From NCBI GenBank assembly GCA_965205855.1, contig OZ242184.1:1088001-1152000 (forward strand): 64,000 nucleotides of DNA, read 5' to 3'. Under the pieces are notes generated by a model that saw only the letters and a program-made list of their open reading frames with translations, ran no database searches and was not told where the DNA came from. Shown piece after piece: positions 22,768-46,517 of the stretch (position 1 is its first letter; every line of letters begins with the position of its first letter). The stretch is from Thermodesulfobacteriota bacterium. GTDB taxonomy: Bacteria > Desulfobacterota_D > UBA1144 > Nemesobacterales > Mycalebacteriaceae. The translations under genes and the position numbers were made by a program.

Positions 22768-23433
22768 TCAGGGCTTGCTGCTTTTCCTCTCCAAACCGGA
22801 GATTCCCAGTCTTTTTTCAAGTTCCCTGTCTATGTCCGCCAGAGAGACCCCCTGCTCGGCAAGCATTACAATGCAGTGAAACCAAAGATCTGCAGTTTCG
22901 GATACCAACTCTTGCGTATTCAGGTTTTTTGCCGCGATAACGGTCTCTCCGGCTTCTTCAGTTATTTTCCTCGCTATCCTGTCTATTCCGCCCTTGAAAA
23001 GAGCGCTCGTATAGGAACCCTCTTTCGGATTCTTCTTCCTATCCGTCAAGGTTTGAAAAACCTTTTCAAGCGTTGCCATTGCACCTTTTTCAAAAGATGG
23101 AGCAGAGGTTTGCGCACCGTCTGCGCCCTTGTGAAAGCAGGTTTCTTTTCCCGTGTGACATGGTGGCCCCTGAGGCTCCACAAGCACCAAAACACAGTCG
23201 CGGTCGCAGTCCACAAGTATTTCCCTTACTTTCTGAAAATTGCCCGATTCCTCCCCCTTTTTCCATAATTTTCCACGAGAACGGCTCCAGAAATGGGTTC
23301 TTTCGGTCTGCCGGGTTTTTTCCAACGCTTCCTTGTTTGCCCATGCCATCATCAGCACTTTACCGTTTTTATGGTCCTGCACTATGACAGGAACAAGTCC
23401 GTCAGCTCCAAATTTGATGGGTTTAGTATCCAT
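22768..23433 (-). CDS. hisIE: Bifunctional phosphoribosyl-AMP cyclohydrolase / phosphoribosyl-ATP pyrophosphatase
   Basis: WSRSR..LW.KGEESG, DCDRD, CHTG..TCF, then GSYT..L, K..EEAGE and ETADLWFH motifs. Confidence 0.95.
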   Translation of the reverse strand: MDTKPIKFGADGLVPVIVQDHKNGKVLMMAWANKEALEKTRQTERTHFWSRSRGKLWKKGEESGNFQKVREILVDCDRDCVLVLVEPQGPPCHTGKETCFHKGADGAQTSAPSFEKGAMATLEKVFQTLTDRKKNPKEGSYTSALFKGGIDRIARKITEEAGETVIAAKNLNTQELVSETADLWFHCIVMLAEQGVSLADIDRELEKRLGISGLERKSSKP

Positions 23434-23515
23434 AGTTATTTCCAATCGCCGTAATTGTGTTATATTACACGCATATGCGGTTTATTAACAGCGGCAAGTA
23501 ACGGGAGTGAAACAG

Positions 23516-23830
23516 ATGGCAAGAGTTACAATAGAAGACTGTATGGAAGTTGTGGGAAACAGATTTGCCCTTTCCGTAGTGGCAATGAAAAGAGCAAAAA
23601 GCATAGTAGCAAAAAAGATCGACCTTCTTGAGAGAGAAAAAAAACTTGCCGAAGCGATGGTAAGCCTGGACGCAGCGGCGGAAAAAGGTGAAATTCCGGT
23701 CGCCGAAGTTGTTGAAAGCAATATGGACAAAAGTTCACGGGTTCAAGAAGAGAACAAACCCGTTATCAGAGCGCTGAAGGAAATAGCCGATAAAAAACTG
23801 AGGTTTTCCTATTCACCCAACCGGCGGTAA
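23516..23830 (+). CDS. rpoZ: RNA polymerase omega subunit with internal insertion
   Basis: MARVTIEDC...NRF.L...A.KRA at the N-terminus and NKP...AL.EIA at the C-terminus. Confidence 0.85.
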   Translation: MARVTIEDCMEVVGNRFALSVVAMKRAKSIVAKKIDLLEREKKLAEAMVSLDAAAEKGEIPVAEVVESNMDKSSRVQEENKPVIRALKEIADKKLRFSYSPNRR

Positions 23831-23877
23831 ATAAAACATTCCGTCTTCCTGATTCGGGCGACTTTAACTCTGCAAGT

Positions 23878-25836
23878 ATGGACGCCACCGTCACAATAGG
23901 GGTTGATATTGGCGGCACCTTTACCGACTTGGTTCTGTTTGACCGCGGAACGGTGCGGATTCACAAAGTCTCCTCTACTCCTCAAAACCCGGCGCTCGCC
24001 GTAGTTGAGGGTGTATCGCACTTTACAAAAAATCTTTCCGCGAACCTTGAAATTATTCACGGAACGACAGTCGCAACAAACACGCTTATCGAAAGAAAAG
24101 GCGCAAAAATCGCCCTTATAACAACAAAGGGATTTGAAGACATTATTGAGATTGGAAGGCAGAACCGCGGGAAACTCTACAACCTTTTCTGGAAAAAAAA
24201 CGAAGGGCTTGTTCCGCGCCCGATGAGAATAGGCGTTGAGGAAAGAACTAATTGCGCCGGCTTCCCTTTTCTCTCTCCGTCCGACACGGAAATGGAGAAA
24301 GTGGCAAACGCCGTTAAAGCTCTCGGCGCGGAAGCGGTAGCGGTCTGTTTTCTGCACTCATATGCAAACCCCGCTCATGAAGCGGCGGTCGGCCGAAGTA
24401 TAGACAAACTCGGTATCCCGGTGTCTCTTTCATCGGTTGTATCTCCCGAATTCAGGGAATATGAAAGGTCATCCACAACGGTGGCAAACGCCTATCTTAT
24501 TCCCGTAATATCAGACTATATGAAGTCCCTTTCGTCCTCTCTCGGCGGCGTGAAGGTTTCCGTAATTCAGTCAAGCGGAGGCGTGACAGAACCGGACAAA
24601 GTCGCGCGTGAGCCGGTAAGGATTACGACCTCCGGCCCCGCGGCCGGCGTGTCCGGCGCTTTCAAAATAGCGGAATGCATGGGCGAGACAAAGATAATAA
24701 CTTGCGACATGGGAGGAACTTCAACGGATGTTTCGCTTTGTAACGGTGTCCCCATGTTCTCATCCCAAAGCAATGTCGGAGGGGTTCCGCTCAGAGTGCC
24801 ATGCATAGATATATCCACAATCGGAGCGGGCGGAGGGTCAATAGCGCGGACAGATGCAGGAGGCATTCTGAAAACCGGACCGGAAAGCGCCGGAGCAGAC
24901 CCCGGCCCCGCATGTTACGGAAAAGGAAAACTTCCCACCGTTACGGATGCAAACCTTGTTCTCGGCAGGATGGAACCGGAACATTTTCTCGGTGGAAGAA
25001 AAAAAATTTTTCCTCAAAGGGCTTTTGAGGCGATACAAACTCTTGAGATGGACAACGCAACACCTTTGCAAAAGGCGGAATCGGTTGTCAGGGTTGTCAA
25101 TTCATCAATGGAGAGGCTGATAAGGGTTATGGCCGCAGACAGAGGAGTTGACCCCAGAGAGTTTTCCCTTTTCGGTTTCGGCGGAGCGGCGGGCCTTCAT
25201 TGCTGTGAAATCGCTTTGGGAACCGGAATGAAAAGGGTAATTTTTCCATGCCATCCCGCCGCTCTCTCGGCGCTCGGAATGCTTCTTTCCGACCTGTTCA
25301 AGGATTACGTAAAAAGCTGCTTCTCGGTTGTGCCTGAGCAAACACATCTCGTATCGGCCTCTTTGAGCGAACTTGAAAAAGCTGCGCGCGCAGAACACAA
25401 AGGCGCGGGCGATTTTGAGACCGAAAGGTTTGTTGACTTAAGATATGCCGGTCAATCGCATGAAATAACGGTTCCCTTTTCCTCCGATATCACTTCGGAT
25501 TTTCATCTCCTGCATTGTAAAAGATTCGGATACGCAATGAATAACAAAACGGTCGAAACCACAGCGGCGCGAATACGCTTCATGGTCGGCAAAAGCGGCT
25601 TTAAACTGCCGGAAATAGAATCTCACACTGGCGAAAACAAGGAGACGGGTGAAAAAGATATTTGGATTAATGGCTCATTCAGGCGTTTCGGGATTTACAG
25701 ACGCCCCGACCTCGGTGCGGGTTTCCGGTTTGAAGGTCCCGCTCTGGTTCTGGAAGACAGCTCGGTTTTAATGATAACTCCGGAGTTCCAATGCGAGGTC
25801 GACCGATGGGGAAACATAGTCGGGAGTTTAAGGTGA
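23878..25836 (+). CDS. Hydantoinase A / 5-oxoprolinase alpha-type subunit
   Basis: GVDIGGTFTD, HGTTVATN, LHSYANP.HE, EFREYER, SGPAAG, DMGGTSTD, GAGGGS and SAGADPGPACYG motifs. Confidence 0.92.
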   Translation: MDATVTIGVDIGGTFTDLVLFDRGTVRIHKVSSTPQNPALAVVEGVSHFTKNLSANLEIIHGTTVATNTLIERKGAKIALITTKGFEDIIEIGRQNRGKLYNLFWKKNEGLVPRPMRIGVEERTNCAGFPFLSPSDTEMEKVANAVKALGAEAVAVCFLHSYANPAHEAAVGRSIDKLGIPVSLSSVVSPEFREYERSSTTVANAYLIPVISDYMKSLSSSLGGVKVSVIQSSGGVTEPDKVAREPVRITTSGPAAGVSGAFKIAECMGETKIITCDMGGTSTDVSLCNGVPMFSSQSNVGGVPLRVPCIDISTIGAGGGSIARTDAGGILKTGPESAGADPGPACYGKGKLPTVTDANLVLGRMEPEHFLGGRKKIFPQRAFEAIQTLEMDNATPLQKAESVVRVVNSSMERLIRVMAADRGVDPREFSLFGFGGAAGLHCCEIALGTGMKRVIFPCHPAALSALGMLLSDLFKDYVKSCFSVVPEQTHLVSASLSELEKAARAEHKGAGDFETERFVDLRYAGQSHEITVPFSSDITSDFHLLHCKRFGYAMNNKTVETTAARIRFMVGKSGFKLPEIESHTGENKETGEKDIWINGSFRRFGIYRRPDLGAGFRFEGPALVLEDSSVLMITPEFQCEVDRWGNIVGSLR

Positions 25837-39105: not shown

Positions 39106-39993
39106 ATGGCTGAAGGAGAAAAATACAGATTTGGCTTCGTACCCGTGGTCGGCGGGACAAATGTGGGCAAGTCCACGCTTGTTAACACCCTTGTCGGTGA
39201 AAAAATCTGCGCTACATCGCCAAAACCCAACACAACACGCAATCGCATAAACGGAATTTTTACCGATTCTGAAGCGCAGATAGTTTTTACCGACACTCCG
39301 GGGATAGTCCGCCCCGTGGGGGAACTGCGAAAAAGAATGGCCGCCGCCTCTCTCGGATGTCTGGAAGGGAGAACAATACTTGCGGTTACAGACGCTTCCA
39401 AACCTTTTGGCAGGGGCGAAGTCAAGGCGATTGAGCAGTCTTCACAACCGGTGATAGTCGCGCTTAACAAAATTGACATTTCAAGTGAAAAGGCGGTGCT
39501 TGAAGCAATTCAGGCTTCAACAAAATTCGGCGGCAAAATATCGGACATTGTCCCCGTTTCCGCGCTTAGGAAAAAAGGCACGGGCCGTTTGCTTCAAGTG
39601 CTCAAAAACGCCCTGCCCGAAGGCGAAAAAATGTTTCCCGAAGGAAACTCCACCGATCAGCCGGAAAAATTTCTCGCCGCCGAATTTGTCAGGGAAAAAA
39701 TATTCCGGCTGACTCACGGGGAAATCCCTTATATGGCTGCGGTTGTTGTCCGTGAGATGCGACCGGGCAAAGGTAAAACCATTTATATCATGGCGGACGT
39801 GCTGCTTGAAAAAGAGACGCACAGAAAGATAGTTATAGGAAGCCGCGGCGGGATGATAAAAAAAATAGGCTCATACGCGCGCAAAGATTTGGAAATTTTT
39901 CTGACAACAAAAGTTTTTCTGGACTTGAATGTGCTTGTCAAACCGGGATGGAGCAAAGACAACCCCTTCCCGGACGGCATATACGGGGTATAG
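39106..39993 (+). CDS. era: GTPase Era
   Basis: G.NVGKSTL, TTR..I.G, DTPG, NKID, EIPY and KH-domain VIG..G.MIKKIG. Confidence 0.93.
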   Translation: MAEGEKYRFGFVPVVGGTNVGKSTLVNTLVGEKICATSPKPNTTRNRINGIFTDSEAQIVFTDTPGIVRPVGELRKRMAAASLGCLEGRTILAVTDASKPFGRGEVKAIEQSSQPVIVALNKIDISSEKAVLEAIQASTKFGGKISDIVPVSALRKKGTGRLLQVLKNALPEGEKMFPEGNSTDQPEKFLAAEFVREKIFRLTHGEIPYMAAVVVREMRPGKGKTIYIMADVLLEKETHRKIVIGSRGGMIKKIGSYARKDLEIFLTTKVFLDLNVLVKPGWSKDNPFPDGIYGV

Positions 39994-40443: not shown

Positions 40444-41244
40444 TCAACGCCCTTTAAAAACGGGCTTTCTTTTTTGAGAAACGGATTTCATCCCCTCTTT
40501 GAAATCGGAGCTTGACTGCGCCCGTTGAATAATATCCCTTACGCTGTCTTCGTCTTCAGGCGCTATTTTGCGGGACTTCTTCAATATGTTTACGCTCCTT
40601 TTGGCGGCCTCAACTGAAAGTGGAGCGTTTCGGGCTATACTATCGGCTATTTTGTAAGTCGTATCCCTCAAAGACTGTCGCGGCACCACTTCGCTTACAA
40701 GACCCATCTCCAGGGATTTTTGCGCCGTAAAAATCTCCGAGGTGAAAAACATACGTTTTGCATTTGAGAAACCCACAGCCCCGACAATCCTTTGAAGCCC
40801 GGAGAACGGGTACGCGATTCCAAGTTTCCCCGGAGGCACGGACATCTTTGAATCATCCGAGCATATGATAAAGTCGCAAGCTACGGCAAGCTCAAGGCCT
40901 CCGCCCATCGCGTAGCCGCAAACCATCGCAATAACAGGACGGGGAAATCTCTCTATCGCATCGCACGCTGTGGCAAGAGGATGGGTTCGCCCGCCGTAGT
41001 CACGCAACATATCGTCGGATTCCAGAAAAGAAAAATCGTATCCCGATGAAAACGCTTTGCCTCCGCGACCCGAAAGCACCACACACCTGACAGACCCGTC
41101 TTTTCCGAATTCTTCAAGCGATGCGACAATCGAGCCAAGCACACCGGGAGAAAGAGAGTTCATTTTCTCCAGCCTGTTGATTTCAAGAGATGCGACCGCT
41201 CCTGACACTTCAACAATTAGCTCAGGGGTAGAAAAAAAATTCAA
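40444..41244 (-). CDS. Enoyl-CoA hydratase/isomerase (crotonase) family
   Basis: NR.EKMNSL, AFSSGYD, P.IA.V.GYAMGGGLELAVACD, A.MGLV and KRKPVFKG motifs. Confidence 0.9.
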   Translation of the reverse strand: MNFFSTPELIVEVSGAVASLEINRLEKMNSLSPGVLGSIVASLEEFGKDGSVRCVVLSGRGGKAFSSGYDFSFLESDDMLRDYGGRTHPLATACDAIERFPRPVIAMVCGYAMGGGLELAVACDFIICSDDSKMSVPPGKLGIAYPFSGLQRIVGAVGFSNAKRMFFTSEIFTAQKSLEMGLVSEVVPRQSLRDTTYKIADSIARNAPLSVEAAKRSVNILKKSRKIAPEDEDSVRDIIQRAQSSSDFKEGMKSVSQKRKPVFKGR

Positions 41245-41296
41245 AACAAGTACCTTTTAAAAGCCTCAAATATGTGTAGCATTTGATGGTTACATT

Positions 41297-41785
41297 ATGC
41301 CCCTTTATGAGTATGAATGCGAAGAGTGCGTGGACAGGTTCAACAGAGATATATCAAAACTTGTCAAGCAACTCAACAAGAAAACCGCCTCCGGAATTTC
41401 ACGGGAAAACCCCGGGTTTCTCTACATAGAGGTTACAAGAGAAAAAACGGGCGAGAAGGTGTTCTTACTTGGCAAAAAAAGCACTTCGCGATATGTCCGA
41501 AGGTTCAAATACCCTCTTGATCAAGGTAAAATTCTCTATCTTGAACTCAAAGACTTCAAGTTCAGCGAGCTGATGAGTCCGGGCGAAGCCTCTCCGGACT
41601 GTCCGTCATGCGGTGGCAAGGTAAGAAGAATTTTTTCAACATTCAAGGCTATATTTGACAAAAGAGACAGGGAGCCGCGCCCCGGAGATGACATTGGCTG
41701 GCATAAAGACTATAAAATTCAAAAGGATGAAGAACAGCAAAACTGGGTTGGACAGGAGAGCCTAAACCAGCGTTTCAAGGGGTAA
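41297..41785 (+). CDS. FmdB-type zinc-ribbon protein with ~75-aa internal insertion (paralog 1)
   Basis: MPLYEYECEEC [75 aa] FKFSEL...CPSCGGKVRRIFS. Confidence 0.8.
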   Translation: MPLYEYECEECVDRFNRDISKLVKQLNKKTASGISRENPGFLYIEVTREKTGEKVFLLGKKSTSRYVRRFKYPLDQGKILYLELKDFKFSELMSPGEASPDCPSCGGKVRRIFSTFKAIFDKRDREPRPGDDIGWHKDYKIQKDEEQQNWVGQESLNQRFKG

Positions 41786-41789
41786 AAAA

Positions 41790-42272
41790 ATGCCTTTGTT
41801 TGAATACGAATGCGTGCCTTGCAGAAGCACCGTTGAAAAAGCGATCGGGAAGATAATGGACGACCCGGCAAAGAAGTCGGTATCTTCGGTCGTAAAGAGC
41901 AACGACACTGTTAACAGCGTTCAAGTAATAGACCTGAAAAAAGGGAAAGTGGAAACCGAAGCCGGAAAGCCGGGAAAAAACGGACAGGACATTGTTCGTT
42001 ACTCCGATGACGGCTCAAAAATGTTTTGGATAAACACTGTGGTCTTCCGCTTCGCGGAACTGATATATGAAAGCGGTGATGAAAAAAAGGTTAAATGTCC
42101 TTCCTGTAATTCAAAGAAAGCGGAGAAAATTGTGTCATCATTCTCTTTTACAAGCGACCTTTCAACTGATATGCCAAAACCCGATCTCAGCAACTTGCCG
42201 CCGGAAGTCCAAAGCAAATTTCAACTGAAAGGCTACATAGAGGAAAAAGACAGACCAAAGAAAAACAGATAG
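41790..42272 (+). CDS. FmdB-type zinc-ribbon protein with ~74-aa internal insertion (paralog 2)
   Basis: MPLFEYECVPC [74 aa] FRFAEL...CPSCNSKKAEKIVSSF. Confidence 0.8.
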   Translation: MPLFEYECVPCRSTVEKAIGKIMDDPAKKSVSSVVKSNDTVNSVQVIDLKKGKVETEAGKPGKNGQDIVRYSDDGSKMFWINTVVFRFAELIYESGDEKKVKCPSCNSKKAEKIVSSFSFTSDLSTDMPKPDLSNLPPEVQSKFQLKGYIEEKDRPKKNR

Positions 42273-42374
42273 GAGACAGAAAAAAATCCTGAAATTGTCA
42301 GGCTCAATTGTTGTCTACAACCAAAATCTGTATTAAGATTGCTTGGCTTTCAAAAAGTGAGAATCGCCACTTCA

Positions 42375-45260
42375 ATGGTTCAGGAAAGTAAAATTTCAAT
42401 GATGCTGGAAGACCTTTTCCACGGCCCCAACTCGGCTGTCGTAGTGGAGTTGCACAACCGCTATATGGAAGACCGTGGGTCCGTTGACCCAGAAGTGCGC
42501 GCGCTCTTTGATGTGTGGAGCCCGTCGGAAAACGGATTGTCCGGAAAAGAAAGTGAAACCTTCAACGATTCCTCAACCGTTGTGGTTGACGCATACGGGA
42601 ACCCCGTGAGCACGGTGGGGGCGGCAAACCTTGCTCTGGCAATACGACTGAACGGTCATCTTGAAAGCATGATAGATCCCCTTGGAAGTCCTCCTCCCGG
42701 AGATGACCTTTTGAAAACTGAATCTCACGGACTGACTGAAAAAGACCTTGAAACGCTTCCACCGTCGCTAATCAGAAGCCCTATTACAAAGAATTGCAAG
42801 AACATTGCGGAAGTTCTGGACAAACTCAGGAAAGTGTATTCATCCTTTTCTGGCTACGATTTTCAACATATCTACTACTCAAACGAAAGGTTATGGATGA
42901 TAAACGCCGCAGAGTCGGGAAAGTTCAGATCACCGAACCAACCTATTGACCTCAAACTGATTCTGGAGCAATTGAGCAAGGTGGAAGCGCTTGAAAGGTT
43001 TCTGCACAAGATTTTTCCGGGCAAATTCCGTTTTTCCATTGAGGGAGTGGACATGCTTGTGCCAATGCTCAACGAGCTTACGTTCCTCTGCTCATACTCG
43101 GGCATCTATCATATAATGCTCGGAATGGCTCACAGAGGGCGTCTTAATGTGATGCACAATGTGATGGACAAGCCCTTTGAACATTTATTGACAACCTTCA
43201 AAGACCCTGTTTATGAAAGGGATTTCAGCGATGACATGGGCTGGACGGGCGATGTCAAATATCATGAAGGAGCAAAAAAACCAATAAAGTTGAATGGAGC
43301 AGGAACCGACTCGGAAGGAATACTGGAAATATTTCTGGCTCCCAACCCAAGCCACCTTGAATCGGTTAATCCCGTAATACAGGGGATGGCGCGCGGAGCA
43401 GGAACCAAGTCTTTGTCACCCGGAACTCCGACATTTGACCGGATGTATTCGCTACCCGTAATTGTCCACGGAGACGCAGCGTTTCCGGGACAGGGAATAA
43501 ACGCCGAAACAATTAACCTGTCTTTAATACCCGGATACGACACGGGAGGAACCCTTCACATAATAACCAACAACCAAATCGGCTACACAACCAATCCCAT
43601 GGAAAGCAGAAGCACTCTCTATTCAAGCGACCTTGTAAAAGGCTTTGAGGTGCCGATAATCCATGTCAACGCCGATGAGCCCGAAGCCTGCATAGAGGCG
43701 ATAAGAATAGCCTTCGCTTATATAAGTAAGTTTAACAAAGACTTTCTGATAGACCTTGTAGGTTACCGCCGCCACGGACATAATGAGGGAGACGAGCCCG
43801 CATTCACTCAGCCGCTTCTCTATGAGAAAATTAAAAACCACCCGACCGCAAGAGAAAAACTCGCCGAAGACTGTGTGAACAGGGGCATTATGGAAAAAAC
43901 GGCGGCGGACGAGCTGTTCGCAAAGCATAACGAAGTATTGGCAAAGGTTTTTGAAACTTTTTCAAAAAAAACCGAAGGTTTTGAAGACAATTCCGCTGTC
44001 CCGAAACCGAGGACGGCGACAAAGGCAAAAACTGCGGTCGTAGCGGCAAGACTGAAAGAGATACACAGATCCCTTCTTGAACTTCCGGACGGTTTTTCCG
44101 TTAACTACAAAATAGAGAAAATTCGCGAGAAAAAACGCGCCTCCCTGAAAGACATGAAAACTCATTCCATAGACTGGGCTGTTGGAGAAGAGCTCTGTTA
44201 CGCTTCAATCCTTGCGGACGGAACTCCCATAAGACTTACGGGCCAAGACTGCCAAAGGGGCACTTTCAGCCACAGGCACGCCGTGTTGCATGACATGAAT
44301 TCCGAAGAAAAATACGTGCCCCTTCAAAGCATTCCACAGGCGAAAGCGGGTTTTGAGATTATCAACAGCCCTCTGACTGAAAATGCGTGCATAGGTTTTG
44401 AATACGGATACAGCATACAGAGACCCGACACACTCGTAATCTGGGAGGCACAATACGGAGACTTCATAAACGGAGCGCAGCCACTGATAGACGAATACCT
44501 GGTCTCGGCGAGGTCCAAATGGGGACAGTACTGTTCCCTTGTATTGCTGTTGCCTCACGCCTACGAAGGTCAGGGTCCCGACCATTCCAGCGGACGGCTT
44601 GAAAGATTTCTCAATATGGCGGCGAAGAAGAACATCAGGGTGGTAAACTGCACGCGCTCGGCACAGTTTTTCCATGTTATAAGAAGACAGGCTGCGGTTC
44701 TGGAAACCGACCCGCTTCCACTTATCGTGATGACCCCGAAAAGTCTGCTCAGAAATCCGCTTGTTTCATCGTCTCTGAGAGAATTTTCCACGGGAGGTTT
44801 TATGCCGGTGATAGACGACCCCGTAAATGACAGGGATGCGGGCAAAGTCCACAGGGTAATTCTCTGCAGCGGCAAAGTGGCGATAGACCTTGAGATGTCA
44901 GAGTCCAGAAAAAAACATCCCGAAGTGGCGGTAATCAGAGTTGAGCAACTTTACTATCCGCCGGTCGATGAGATGGAATCCGCGATAGACAGATACGGCG
45001 GTGCGAAGGAGATAGTCTGGCTTCAGGAGGAGCCCCTGAACATGGGAGCATGGGGATTTATGAATTCTATTCTGCGCCGAATCGCGCGGGCGAAAAACCT
45101 TCCTCTTTCCCTCATAGCAAGAAAACGCAACTCAAGCCCCGCGGAAGGCTTTATGTCAATGCATAAAGTTAACCAATCTATTCTCATCAAGCAGGCTTTC
45201 AGCGCACTTGCTGTGGATAAAATTGAAAAAAGCGGCGTGATAATGGAAACGGATGTTTAA
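42375..45260 (+). CDS. sucA: 2-oxoglutarate dehydrogenase E1
   Basis: RFSIEG, GMAHRGRLN, GDVKYH, NPSHLE, HGDAAFPGQG, GHNEGDEP, WEAQYGDF and EGQGPDHSS. Start uncertain (42339/42375/42399). Confidence 0.95.
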   Translation: MVQESKISMMLEDLFHGPNSAVVVELHNRYMEDRGSVDPEVRALFDVWSPSENGLSGKESETFNDSSTVVVDAYGNPVSTVGAANLALAIRLNGHLESMIDPLGSPPPGDDLLKTESHGLTEKDLETLPPSLIRSPITKNCKNIAEVLDKLRKVYSSFSGYDFQHIYYSNERLWMINAAESGKFRSPNQPIDLKLILEQLSKVEALERFLHKIFPGKFRFSIEGVDMLVPMLNELTFLCSYSGIYHIMLGMAHRGRLNVMHNVMDKPFEHLLTTFKDPVYERDFSDDMGWTGDVKYHEGAKKPIKLNGAGTDSEGILEIFLAPNPSHLESVNPVIQGMARGAGTKSLSPGTPTFDRMYSLPVIVHGDAAFPGQGINAETINLSLIPGYDTGGTLHIITNNQIGYTTNPMESRSTLYSSDLVKGFEVPIIHVNADEPEACIEAIRIAFAYISKFNKDFLIDLVGYRRHGHNEGDEPAFTQPLLYEKIKNHPTAREKLAEDCVNRGIMEKTAADELFAKHNEVLAKVFETFSKKTEGFEDNSAVPKPRTATKAKTAVVAARLKEIHRSLLELPDGFSVNYKIEKIREKKRASLKDMKTHSIDWAVGEELCYASILADGTPIRLTGQDCQRGTFSHRHAVLHDMNSEEKYVPLQSIPQAKAGFEIINSPLTENACIGFEYGYSIQRPDTLVIWEAQYGDFINGAQPLIDEYLVSARSKWGQYCSLVLLLPHAYEGQGPDHSSGRLERFLNMAAKKNIRVVNCTRSAQFFHVIRRQAAVLETDPLPLIVMTPKSLLRNPLVSSSLREFSTGGFMPVIDDPVNDRDAGKVHRVILCSGKVAIDLEMSESRKKHPEVAVIRVEQLYYPPVDEMESAIDRYGGAKEIVWLQEEPLNMGAWGFMNSILRRIARAKNLPLSLIARKRNSSPAEGFMSMHKVNQSILIKQAFSALAVDKIEKSGVIMETDV

Positions 45261-45284
45261 AAAGAAAAAAAGACGGAGGACAAA

Positions 45285-46517
45285 ATGGCAACATCAATAT
45301 TAGTGCCCGAACTCGGCGACTCGGTTATTGAGGCGACGGTTGTAAAATGGCTCAAACAGGAAGGAGACCCTGTCAACACGGGAGAAACCATAGTTGAACT
45401 TGAGACAGAAAAGGCGAATTTTGAAGTTCCCGCCATAACAAGCGGAGTGATCGCCGAGATTAGCAAACAAGAGGGAGACGAAGTGAAAGTGGGAGACCCC
45501 CTTGGCGCGATAGATGAATCCGCGAAAACTGAACCGGTCGCCGTATCGGAAAAAGAAGACACTCCCTCGGAGAGAGAAACGGCAAAGCCTGAGAAAACAG
45601 CGCCTCCAAAAGCGAAGACCGGGGAGCGCTCAACCCCGGTTGCGAGAAATATTGCTCGCAATAAAAACATAGACCTGTCATCGGTCAATCCAAGCGGTGA
45701 AGGTGGACGCATAATGAAAACTGATGTTGAAGAAGTCGCGCACAAGGCGGCACCGACGACTCCCGCAAAAGAACCCGATATTGAAAGCGGTATTTTCCCA
45801 TCGCTTTCCGCATTGCACCGCAGAGATAAAAGGGTAAAGATGACCCCGCGCCGCAAAACCATAGCGCGGCGCTTGCTTCAAGCTCAGCGCGACGCCGCGA
45901 TTCTCTCCACTTTCAACGAAGTAGACATGGGAGCCGTTATGGACCTTCGCAAAAGACGCAAAGACAACTTCAAGGAGAAATACGGAGTGTCGCTCGGAAT
46001 GTCGTCATTCTTCATCAAAGCCTCGGTTGGAGCTCTTAAAGCTTTTCCGCAGGTCAATTCCGAAATTCAGAAAGACGAGATTATCTACAAGCACTTTTAC
46101 GACATAGGAGTGGCGATAGGAGCCTCAAGCGGATTGGTTGTGCCGGTAATACGCGAGGCGGATAAAAAGAGTTTTGCCGAGATTGAAAAAGAAGTCAGAG
46201 ATTTCGCCGTAAAAGCCGAAGAAGGAAAATTGAAAATCGATGAGATTATCGGAGGAACTTTTTCCATAACCAACGGCGGTGTTTTCGGCTCCCTGCTGAG
46301 CACTCCGATACTGAACCCCCCACAGGTCGGAATACTCGGACTTCACGCTATTAAACAGAGACCGGTTGTCGTGGACGGAGAAATTGCCATACGTCCCATA
46401 ATGCTTGTCGCTCTCAGTTACGACCACAGAGTTGTGGACGGAAGGGAAGCGGTTCAGTTTCTTGTCAAGCTCAAGGAGCTTGTGGAAGACCCGGAATCCC
46501 TTCTCGTGGAAGGATAA
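45285..46517 (+). CDS. sucB: Dihydrolipoamide succinyltransferase E2
   Basis: Lipoyl domain ELETEKA, E3-binding domain, TFNEVDM, GGTFSITNGG and SYDHRVVDG. Confidence 0.95.
   Translation: MATSILVPELGDSVIEATVVKWLKQEGDPVNTGETIVELETEKANFEVPAITSGVIAEISKQEGDEVKVGDPLGAIDESAKTEPVAVSEKEDTPSERETAKPEKTAPPKAKTGERSTPVARNIARNKNIDLSSVNPSGEGGRIMKTDVEEVAHKAAPTTPAKEPDIESGIFPSLSALHRRDKRVKMTPRRKTIARRLLQAQRDAAILSTFNEVDMGAVMDLRKRRKDNFKEKYGVSLGMSSFFIKASVGALKAFPQVNSEIQKDEIIYKHFYDIGVAIGASSGLVVPVIREADKKSFAEIEKEVRDFAVKAEEGKLKIDEIIGGTFSITNGGVFGSLLSTPILNPPQVGILGLHAIKQRPVVVDGEIAIRPIMLVALSYDHRVVDGREAVQFLVKLKELVEDPESLLVEG

Follow-up and report, generated by a model that had tools for sequence, protein, structure and literature searches.

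A tandem pair of putative FmdB/Ruc-type zinc-ribbon proteins, split by an accessory inserted domain, in a Dadabacteria-like phylum

Two adjacent genes encode split zinc ribbons

The window analyzed here is a stretch of 64,000 nucleotides (contig OZ242184.1, positions 1,088,001 to 1,152,000 of the forward strand) that forms part of a single-contig genome of 1.40 Mb. We investigated two adjacent genes within it, called A and B. Gene A (41297..41785, plus strand) encodes a protein of 162 amino acids (aa), and gene B (41790..42272, plus strand) encodes a paralog of 160 aa; both were delimited by their open reading frames (ORFs) and identified as split FmdB-type zinc-ribbon proteins by family profiles and AlphaFold models. 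Only 4 nt (41786-41789) lie between the A stop codon and the B ATG, and the two genes are probably cotranscribed. Judged from their sequences, A and B are a co-oriented pair of paralogous FmdB/Ruc-type zinc-ribbon proteins with four cysteines (Cys4), specific to one Dadabacteria-like phylum. The observations below establish the architecture of the pair, its distribution and its modularity.

Both proteins begin with MPL(Y/F)EYEC..C and carry a second knuckle, CPSC, formed by C102/C105 in A and by C103/C106 in B. From C11 to the next cysteine there are 90 residues in A and 91 in B, in agreement with an earlier reading of the DNA made without database searches (the sequence-only reading), which had placed the two FmdB signatures here with about 90 residues between the CxxC knuckles. 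The Pfam family Zn_ribbon_8 (PF09723) scores 41.4 bits in A and 35.4 bits in B against a curated cutoff of 34.4, and TIGR02605 (CxxC_CxxC_SSSS) scores 42.9 and 35.7 bits against a cutoff of 31.3. With either profile, each protein is matched in two separate stretches, which is the formal expression of a split ribbon. Zn_ribbon_8 was matched by 40 of 40 aligned members at an E value of 1 or better, and no other Pfam family recurred on the insert or the tails of the 40 homologs at E 1. As for an end-to-end match to a single characterized family, which the sequence-only reading had named as a point that would speak against it, only the two-stretch match to Zn_ribbon_8 was found.

The two proteins share the same order of parts. 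In A, residues 1-11 (41297..41329) comprise the first ribbon strand and the first knuckle, MPLYEYECEEC, aligned to positions 1-17 of the PF09723 profile, with C8 and C11 nearly invariant. Residues 12-86 (41330..41554) form a 75-aa inserted domain of two helices followed by four strands, delimited by DSSP assignment on the model and by insert-only alignment to B (hhalign). Residues 87-116 (41555..41644), the second stretch of the Pfam and TIGR matches, hold the FKFSEL strand, the CPSC knuckle (C102, which is invariant, and C105) and the last ribbon strand, RRIFS. Residues 117-162 (41645..41782) are a hydrophilic tail, KAIFDK..R.P.PGD..WH.DYK.QKDEE..WVGQ..LNQ.F, set apart by its sequence conservation and by its predicted local distance difference test (pLDDT) values. 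In B, residues 1-11 (41790..41822; MPLFEYECVPC) are the first ribbon strand and first knuckle, with C8 and C11 invariant in the B alignment, and residues 12-85 (41823..42044) are a 74-aa inserted domain by DSSP of the model, replaced by 2 residues in insert-less orthologs. Residues 86-118 (42045..42143) hold the FRFAEL strand, CPSC (C103, which is invariant, and C106) and the last ribbon strand, the best TIGR02605 stretch being residues 97-120. Residues 119-160 (42144..42269) are a conserved proline-rich, basic tail, SDLSTDMPKPDLSNLPP.....Y(I/V)EEKDRPKKNR, recognized by its identity among homologs and modeled at a pLDDT of 43-63. A predicted alpha2-beta domain of 74-75 residues, placed two residues past the first CxxC and before the central ribbon strand, thus sets the knuckles 90-91 residues apart.

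The paralogy of A and B extends into the insert. By BLASTP, the proteins are 31% identical over 134 residues (E 1e-11), and the first 60 positions align without a gap. Among these are the shared positions that the sequence-only reading had listed for the inserts: K28 and K29, S32, N38, (I/V)(E/Q)V at 44-46, G52, and G59 and K60. A profile-profile comparison (hhalign) confirmed the relationship of these closely spaced genes (probability, 99.7%; E 2.4e-26; 132 columns). When the ribbon columns were removed, the insert columns alone still aligned in register over 62 columns (probability, 71.5%; E 3.6e-5), so that the proposed homology of the two inserts holds. The deposited entry for this genome's own B (P0084) has 138 aa, covers 86% of the query and starts at an internal methionine without the first CxxC knuckle; the deposited gene call therefore looks truncated at its 5' end.

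The pair is nearly universal in one phylum

Close homologs come from sources named Candidatus Mycalebacterium or Candidatus Dadabacteria. A word-indexed search returned 83 homologs of A and 186 of B, most of about equal length, and A was present in 38 of 41 related whole genomes. A joint A+B profile had a match in 115 of 120 genomes of the Dadabacteria-like phylum, including 92 of the 94 high-quality genomes and 31 of 32 genera. Two or more matches were found in 113 of the 120, which bears out the expected conservation of the pairing. The genomes without a match were G015 (88% complete), G023 (96%), G091 (79%), G095 (77%) and G101 (90%). The pair is retained even in family f9, which belongs to another order and has genomes of 0.8-1.1 Mb; there, both A and B carry the insert and have longer tails. 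The A-B pair is therefore a near-universal marker of an uncultured phylum, and its retention in streamlined marine genomes suggests that it probably touches something important in their physiology.

To place the pair more widely, we searched 1.84 billion representative proteins with the joint profile, using HMMER in filter-only mode. At E 1e-3, the search returned 166 proteins, of which 27 also passed E 1e-10. Insert-bearing forms of full length ranked first, followed by fragments and then by canonical FmdB ribbons of 55-130 aa; in the matches inspected, these ordinary ribbons met the profile at the two knuckle regions only. By this search, the insert-bearing form is found in the Dadabacteria-like phylum only.

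Tandem ribbons occurred in 3 of 78 loci scanned, all three of them insert bearing, and the canonical ribbons of other phyla in the sample were single genes. The gap between A and B was 2-24 nt in 27 of the 28 genomes in which it was measured, the exception being G009 (79 nt). The record of one locus, L021 (CAZXEJ010000032.1), is named uncultured Spirochaetia bacterium, and the protein P0215 is assigned to Candidatus Caldarchaeum in one source. Kinship labels assign G009, the genome of L021, to the window's own order, and the synteny agrees; the two names are probably binning or labeling errors.

The insert is an accessory module

We read the state of the insert in loci of 31 genomes. Both genes carry it in 26 (families f1, f2, f3, f4, f6, f8 and f9 and part of f7). 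Three genomes of f7 (G021, G025 and G032) combine an insert-bearing A with a B that is an 87-aa canonical ribbon, and one more (G038, also f7) combines an insert-bearing A with a frameshifted, insert-bearing B. In the remaining genome, G009 (f5), both proteins are canonical ribbons (A', 85 aa; B', 87 aa) in the same synteny and with recognizably homologous tails. The B-type tail was seen on insert-less 87-aa ribbons in P0215 and at loci L021 and L022, and the profile search yielded P0215 and P0232 as 87-aa canonical ribbons with a tail almost identical to that of B. Only two residues remain between the first CxxC and the central strand in the insert-less forms, which marks the insertion point exactly.

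The mean pairwise identity in the N-terminal ribbon half was 75.5% for A and 77.6% for B, compared with 53.0% and 46.3% in the insert, 54.4% and 70.2% in the C-terminal ribbon half, and 71.3% and 80.4% in the tail. Taken with the natural insert-less forms, these values identify ribbon plus tail as the constant and most constrained unit. The insert is an accessory module that is absent in some lineages, and ribbon and tail are the constant core. The same two genes thus exist in nature with and without the folded insert, a natural experiment, and the tails are conserved to a degree that points to specific partners, so that the roles of ribbon and tail are directly testable by comparing these forms. 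In G038, the B gene (L113; G038:C57:11674-12118) is frameshifted inside the insert, and its pieces correspond to residues 1-68 and 71-155. By its A tail, G038 is close to genomes without the B insert; the frameshift is either insert decay caught in the act or an assembly error.

The sequence-only reading proposed that an ancestral insertion was followed by duplication. To evaluate the order of events, we concatenated four genes that flank the pair (ech, era, hisIE and the hydantoinase-like gene) and built a tree from them (FastTree, 1,430 columns, 26 genomes, no outgroup). G009 falls between two groups of insert-bearing families (local supports, 0.93-0.98), and the three genomes without the B insert are nested within f7. 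With f9 taken to lie outside the order on the basis of kinship labels, parsimony favors an ancestor that had the insert in both genes, followed by two or more precise losses, a history that fits the proposal. The gene tree of B (ribbon and tail only) complicates it, as all four insert-less B' proteins group together (support, 0.97) and share features of the canonical family, such as CPKC and ELVM. This grouping may mean that these proteins reverted convergently to the canonical ribbon, that the gene passed from one lineage to another or that ancestral states were retained. Because the flank tree has no outgroup, the root could also lie on the G009 branch, in which case duplication would have come first and the insert would have been gained later and copied between the tandem paralogs.

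The predicted fold of the insert resembles sensor domains in arrangement

AlphaFold2 models built from 30-sequence alignments reached a mean pLDDT of 78.0 for A and 77.8 for B. Ten-residue blocks over residues 1-110 scored 81-90 in A and 81-93 in B, and the tails mostly scored 32-75. In both models, the order is a ribbon strand, two helices, four consecutive strands, the FxFxEL strand, the second knuckle and the last strand. DSSP assigns helices at residues 9-24 and 28-37 in both proteins and strands at 41-48, 54-59, 67-74 and 78-85 in A and at 41-48, 53-59, 66-71 and 77-83 in B. The insert is thus confidently modeled as an alpha2-beta sandwich.

The sequence-only reading had likened the insert to a minimal PAS/PDC-type sensor fold. 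An exhaustive VIA structural search did place Cache/PDC/PAS sensor domains at the top for both models, at Z scores of 6.0-6.8, below the 7-8 that the tool states as the typical best for models without a true match. The best row for B was 4onx_A (Z 6.8; root mean square deviation [rmsd], 3.3; 82 aligned residues), and the best for A was 5wbf_A (Z 6.3; rmsd, 4.3; 89 aligned), both under that background; uS3 and Roadblock/LC7 folds came next, uS3 at only Z 5.0-5.8. What is shared with Cache/PDC/PAS domains (4onx, 5wbf and 4ywz) is an antiparallel sheet against which a long N-terminal helix packs. The ligand pocket of PAS and PDC domains is formed by the sheet together with helical elements that lie between strands two and three; DSSP finds no helix between the successive four to five strands of either model, and no PAS, Cache or PDC Pfam family matched A, B or the 40 homologs at E 1. 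The A/B domain is, moreover, embedded in a zinc ribbon and not joined to a transmitter. Cache/PDC/PAS domains are extracytoplasmic, whereas A and B look cytoplasmic, as no signal peptide or membrane segment was noticed by eye (no predictor was run). In these models, the likeness is one of arrangement and not evidence of kinship, and it is only weakly consistent with the proposed fold.

Other searches likewise pointed to no relative of the insert. Foldseek, one of the checks proposed in the sequence-only reading, found nothing in the PDB for model A at E 0.001, and a PDB sequence search with the profile gave 0 matches at E 1. In the ESM Atlas, whole A matched only its own cluster and generic Zn_ribbon_8 clusters, and the B insert (residues 12-86), compared with the named clusters while PF09723 was skipped, had no usable match.

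Cysteines and tails are conserved

At least four cysteines are present in 28 of 28 A proteins and 29 of 29 B proteins from genomes. The predicted zinc ligands are C8, C11 and C102/C105 in A and C8, C11 and C103/C106 in B, a pattern like that of the four-cysteine N-terminal ribbon of Ruc, discussed below. We surveyed the knuckles in 191 of 203 database homologs (73 A and 118 B proteins), five of which resisted parsing; in one A protein, the first knuckle is a variant. Among the 73 A proteins, the second knuckle reads CxxC in 66, CxCxxxC in three and Cx5C in two; among the 118 B proteins, it reads CxxC in 89, CxC in 21, CxCxxxC in one and C-x5-H in three. Loss of the second knuckle was not seen among the 191 homologs surveyed, five of them unparsed. 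The fourth ligand thus appears to be kept while the geometry of the knuckle drifts. In the genomes read, this drift is confined to insert-bearing forms (the four insert-less B' proteins have CPKC and the A' of G009 has CPSC), which suggests that the insert helps hold the ribbon together.

The tails of A and B are not of low complexity, with mean identities of 71% and 80%, and charged residues make up 43% and 36% of them, respectively. The A tail is modeled with helices at residues 133-148 and 153-159, and its pLDDT is low to middling. In f9 (L107-L110), both tails are extended and contain additional conserved motifs: A ends in ...QYFGNSQHDGSYG(S/T)E, and B ends in ...NIK.(D/E).RYKHQY.DKS..K(I/L)L. 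The second knuckle of A in this family is C-P-(C/N)-x-K-(K/E)-C.

Neighboring genes and the upstream region

Upstream of A lies ech (40444..41244, minus strand), a divergent crotonase-family gene (ECH_1, E 1.5e-51), preceded by the GTPase gene era (39106..39993, plus strand; MMR_HSR1 and KH_2 domains), which by synteny is part of a conserved block, era > ech < A > B >. Downstream of B, on the plus strand, are sucA and sucB (42339..46517), assigned by family match to the E1o (42339..45260) and E2o (45285..46517) components of 2-oxoglutarate dehydrogenase. The sequence-only reading had named these neighbors correctly and had seen in them a hint of tricarboxylic acid (TCA) or acyl-coenzyme A (acyl-CoA) control. 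However, sucA directly follows B in six of six loci of the window's own genus g1 (L001-L006) and in none of the other loci examined; elsewhere, convergent hisIE takes this place, directly after B in all loci viewed gene by gene (L011, L013, L021 and L022). Among the 25 other loci, hisIE was in the fetched stretch near the pair in 24, and a hydantoinase_A-like gene was there in 21. The gene rpoZ follows hisIE in L021 and L022, with Pfam confirmation in L022 only.

In the window genome, hisIE (minus strand) and the hydantoinase_A-like gene (plus strand) lie about 18 kb upstream of the pair, at 22768..25836 (best matches, G000:C1:1110768-1111445 and 1111878-1113836, converted with a window offset of 1088000 in the contig). 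Their position suggests that a genus-specific rearrangement happened to put sucAB behind B. No terminator-like site was found on the plus strand between B and sucA, so read-through into sucA is possible in this genus. In families f1-f9, ech stands beside A or within about 4 kb of it; era > ech < adjoins A in most families, with about 4 kb of unrelated genes intervening in some f3, f7 and f8 genomes. At L013, L015, L016, L018 and L020, about 3.5-4.7 kb of unrelated genes separate ech from A, and the fetched stretch of L012 contains no ech. The older conserved block comprises era, ech, A, B and hisIE and persists even in f9. The position of the genes holds no conserved link to TCA or acyl-CoA control, and the pair gives no support for a new system of this kind.

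The 52 nt between the divergent start codons of ech and A (41245..41296, from the ORF coordinates) hold the ribosome-binding region of A, and this interval or its vicinity must also contain the promoter of the pair. Families f2, f4, f5, f6 and f7 have in common a motif upstream of A, CT(G/A)GA, about 16 nt, TTGTTA(A/T)TATT and then a Shine-Dalgarno sequence (L009, L011, L014, L016, L017, L019 and L111-L119; for example, G032:C1:28715-28745). In three of five f7 genomes searched, the strict form occurs once per genome, only before A, and a reversed control pattern had 0 matches. It may act as a promoter or operator specific to this locus. The window's genus carries a different, genus-conserved sequence in this position.

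Relation to known zinc-ribbon proteins

Few small bacterial proteins are as widespread as the FmdB/Ruc-type ribbons. The canonical FmdB ribbon has two CxxC knuckles about 17 residues apart in a contiguous domain of about 50 aa (TIGR02605 description), and most TIGR02605 members have a degenerate, low-complexity C-terminal region rich in Ser, Gly or Cys. A and B share with this family (PF09723, TIGR02605 and COG2331) the MPxYEYxC..C start, the central xFxEL strand and a second knuckle followed by (R/K)(I/V)xS. Their insert-less orthologs are ordinary members of 85-87 aa, and the spacing of about 17 residues does hold in those of G009, G021, G025 and G032. What sets the pair apart is that a folded insert of 74-75 aa places the knuckles 90-91 residues apart, that the tails are strongly conserved and not degenerate, and that the proteins form a fixed tandem paralog pair.

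The only characterized relative of A and B is Ruc (Rv0991c) of Mycobacterium tuberculosis. In the sections of its report at hand, Ruc has an N-terminal four-cysteine zinc ribbon of about 50 aa, its cloning primer encodes MPTYSYEC, a cysteine mutant is named C8S/C11S, and the protein binds one zinc through thiols (PMC7448276). Its C-terminal half is disordered and needed for an oxidation-activated holdase (antiaggregation) activity; Ruc also promotes refolding by DnaKJE and copurifies with DnaK (PMC7448276). The same sections describe the tails of the Ruc family as highly variable and without sequence similarity, and ruc as often linked to, or co-occurring with, chaperone (proteostasis) genes (PMC7448276). 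Like Ruc, as far as these sections describe it, A and B are small stand-alone proteins with a four-cysteine N-terminal ribbon, cysteines at positions 8 and 11 and a hydrophilic C-terminal half, measured as disordered in Ruc and modeled at low confidence in A and B. Unlike Ruc, they bear an insert and occur as two paralogs, their tails are conserved where those of the Ruc family are described as variable, and their neighbors are not proteostasis genes (PMC7448276). The FmdB family also has rare selenocysteine members (2 selenocysteine versus 807 cysteine homologs in Table 4 of PMC2398784; a U/CxxU motif in a table of PMC9312934), which fits redox-active cysteines.

The claim of the sequence-only reading that no described family has this architecture stands for the insert-bearing, paired form, which is undescribed in the literature searched on the ribbon family, including the sections of the Ruc paper at hand (PMC7448276); it overlooked that the ribbon family itself has a characterized member, Ruc. 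New, then, is the split, insert-bearing, paired form with conserved tails, and already known is a ribbon family with one characterized member.

Other comparisons were less informative. Trm112 likewise contains a zinc knuckle; in its eukaryotic form, a domain separates the two halves of the zinc module, and in the short forms of bacteria that domain is absent. Its split ribbon would have evolved in a similar manner, but this is an analogy only; at E 1, Pfam searches of A, B and the 40 homologs did not return Trm112p, and the fold of the insert differs. Neither A nor B matched any family of the PADLOC defense models at E 0.1. We rejected a zinc subunit like that of acetone carboxylase gamma, serving the hydantoinase-like gene: its family did not appear in the Pfam results at E 1, the genes are separated by hisIE and rpoZ, and in the window genome the hydantoinase-like gene has remained beside hisIE, about 18 kb from the pair.

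Possible roles of A and B

Among the roles considered, we tentatively favor one suggested by Ruc, while granting it well under half of our belief: A and B would act jointly in protein quality control or stress adaptation, with the four cysteines as a zinc/thiol switch and the tails binding clients or partners. The four cysteines of each protein would, by analogy with Ruc (Rv0991c), form such a switch (or a scaffold), and the C-terminal tails would be the working ends. The insert might stabilize or gate the ribbon or add an oligomerization surface. Because the tails are conserved and not variable, they would be expected to dock to defined partners and not to offer a generic holdase surface. That the two proteins would act together is suggested by their being always co-encoded, 2-24 nt apart in 27 of 28 genomes.

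Several observations weigh against this proposal. The tails are among the best-conserved parts of A and B, whereas those of the Ruc family are described as variable in the text at hand (PMC7448276), and conservation points to a specific partner rather than to generic client binding. The neighbors are era, ech, hisIE, rpoZ, the hydantoinase-like gene and sucAB, not chaperone genes. No CIRCE, HAIR or sigma-32 consensus was found upstream of A in 29 genomes. The genome's third FmdB gene, which is canonical and has a low-complexity Ser/Cys tail, is a more natural equivalent of ruc. The placement of Ruc with the FmdB ribbons comes solely from the primer and the mutant named in the sections of its report at hand (PMC7448276).

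The conservation of the tails makes it nearly as likely that A and B are constitutive adaptors or structural subunits, their ribbons stable scaffolds and their tails permanently docked on a conserved machine (for example, the ribosome, RNA polymerase or an enzyme complex); redox switching would play no part. Small zinc ribbons often serve as subunits of ribosomes or polymerases, and the pair persists across almost the whole phylum, including streamlined genomes of 0.8-1.1 Mb. Its tails are more conserved than the folded core, and other canonical FmdB subfamilies also have conserved tail motifs of their own. The tails are sequence specific, unlike those of Ruc homologs as described in the sections at hand (PMC7448276). 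On the other hand, no sequence or fold match to a known subunit emerged (0 in the PDB profile search at E 1 and 0 with Foldseek at E 0.001), the uS3 rows reach only Z 5.0-5.8, below background, and the neighborhood is a frozen block of unrelated genes that names no partner. A further arrangement is unlikely, though worth stating: a phylum-specific two-protein switch in which the ribbon would clasp a sensor-like insert, and zinc/thiol status or an insert ligand would control the exposure of two conserved docking tails. The pair would then be an essential regulator or adaptor of a core Dadabacteria process, and the insert-less forms would be constitutive versions of it.

Still less probable is the model of the sequence-only reading, in which PAS/PDC-like inserts form an A-B heterodimer that senses a ligand or redox state and regulates ech and sucAB. 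It can draw on the Cache/PDC/PAS domains that head the structural rows for both models (4onx_A, Z 6.8; 5wbf_A, Z 6.3), on divergent ech being an old neighbor and on a conserved, locus-specific noncoding motif upstream. These Z scores stay below the background best of 7-8, Foldseek returned nothing at E 0.001, no helix lies between the beta strands where a PAS/PDC pocket forms, and no Pfam sensor family matched at E 1 in 40 members. An obligate insert-insert sensor is weakened further by the absence of the insert from both genes in G009, the f5 genome, and from B in G021, G025 and G032, ribbon and tails persisting, and by the lack of any DNA-binding or output domain. Nor does the neighborhood help, as adjacency to sucAB is confined to one genus and ech stands several kilobases from A at five loci and is missing from the fetched stretch of a sixth. 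The idea that the genes are chance open frames or decaying pseudogenes without function could appeal to the truncated 138-aa call for this genome's own B (P0084) and to the frameshifted B of G038. It is refuted by conservation, as 113 of 120 genomes have both orthologs intact and each family has tens of invariant columns, and the cores of the models fold confidently; we give it practically no weight.

Other FmdB-type ribbons

Canonical FmdB subfamilies of other phyla (L027-L100) have their own conserved tail motifs, for example, IFKGSGFY.TD, FRLKG.GWYETDFK, MRKREEYTG.GG.LDP..GPSFSG and CGRSQCA(S/T)GGCMFGN. A design of ribbon plus specific tail may therefore be general in the FmdB family.

The third FmdB gene of the window's genome lies outside the window (L120 1501-1767; G000:C1:851893-852159) and encodes an 88-aa ribbon of the canonical type, ending in a low-complexity Ser/Cys tail. 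Its neighbors are a gene for a 259-aa multipass membrane protein, which we take to be CcdA/DsbD-like, and a 429-aa ORF, presumably a malic enzyme.

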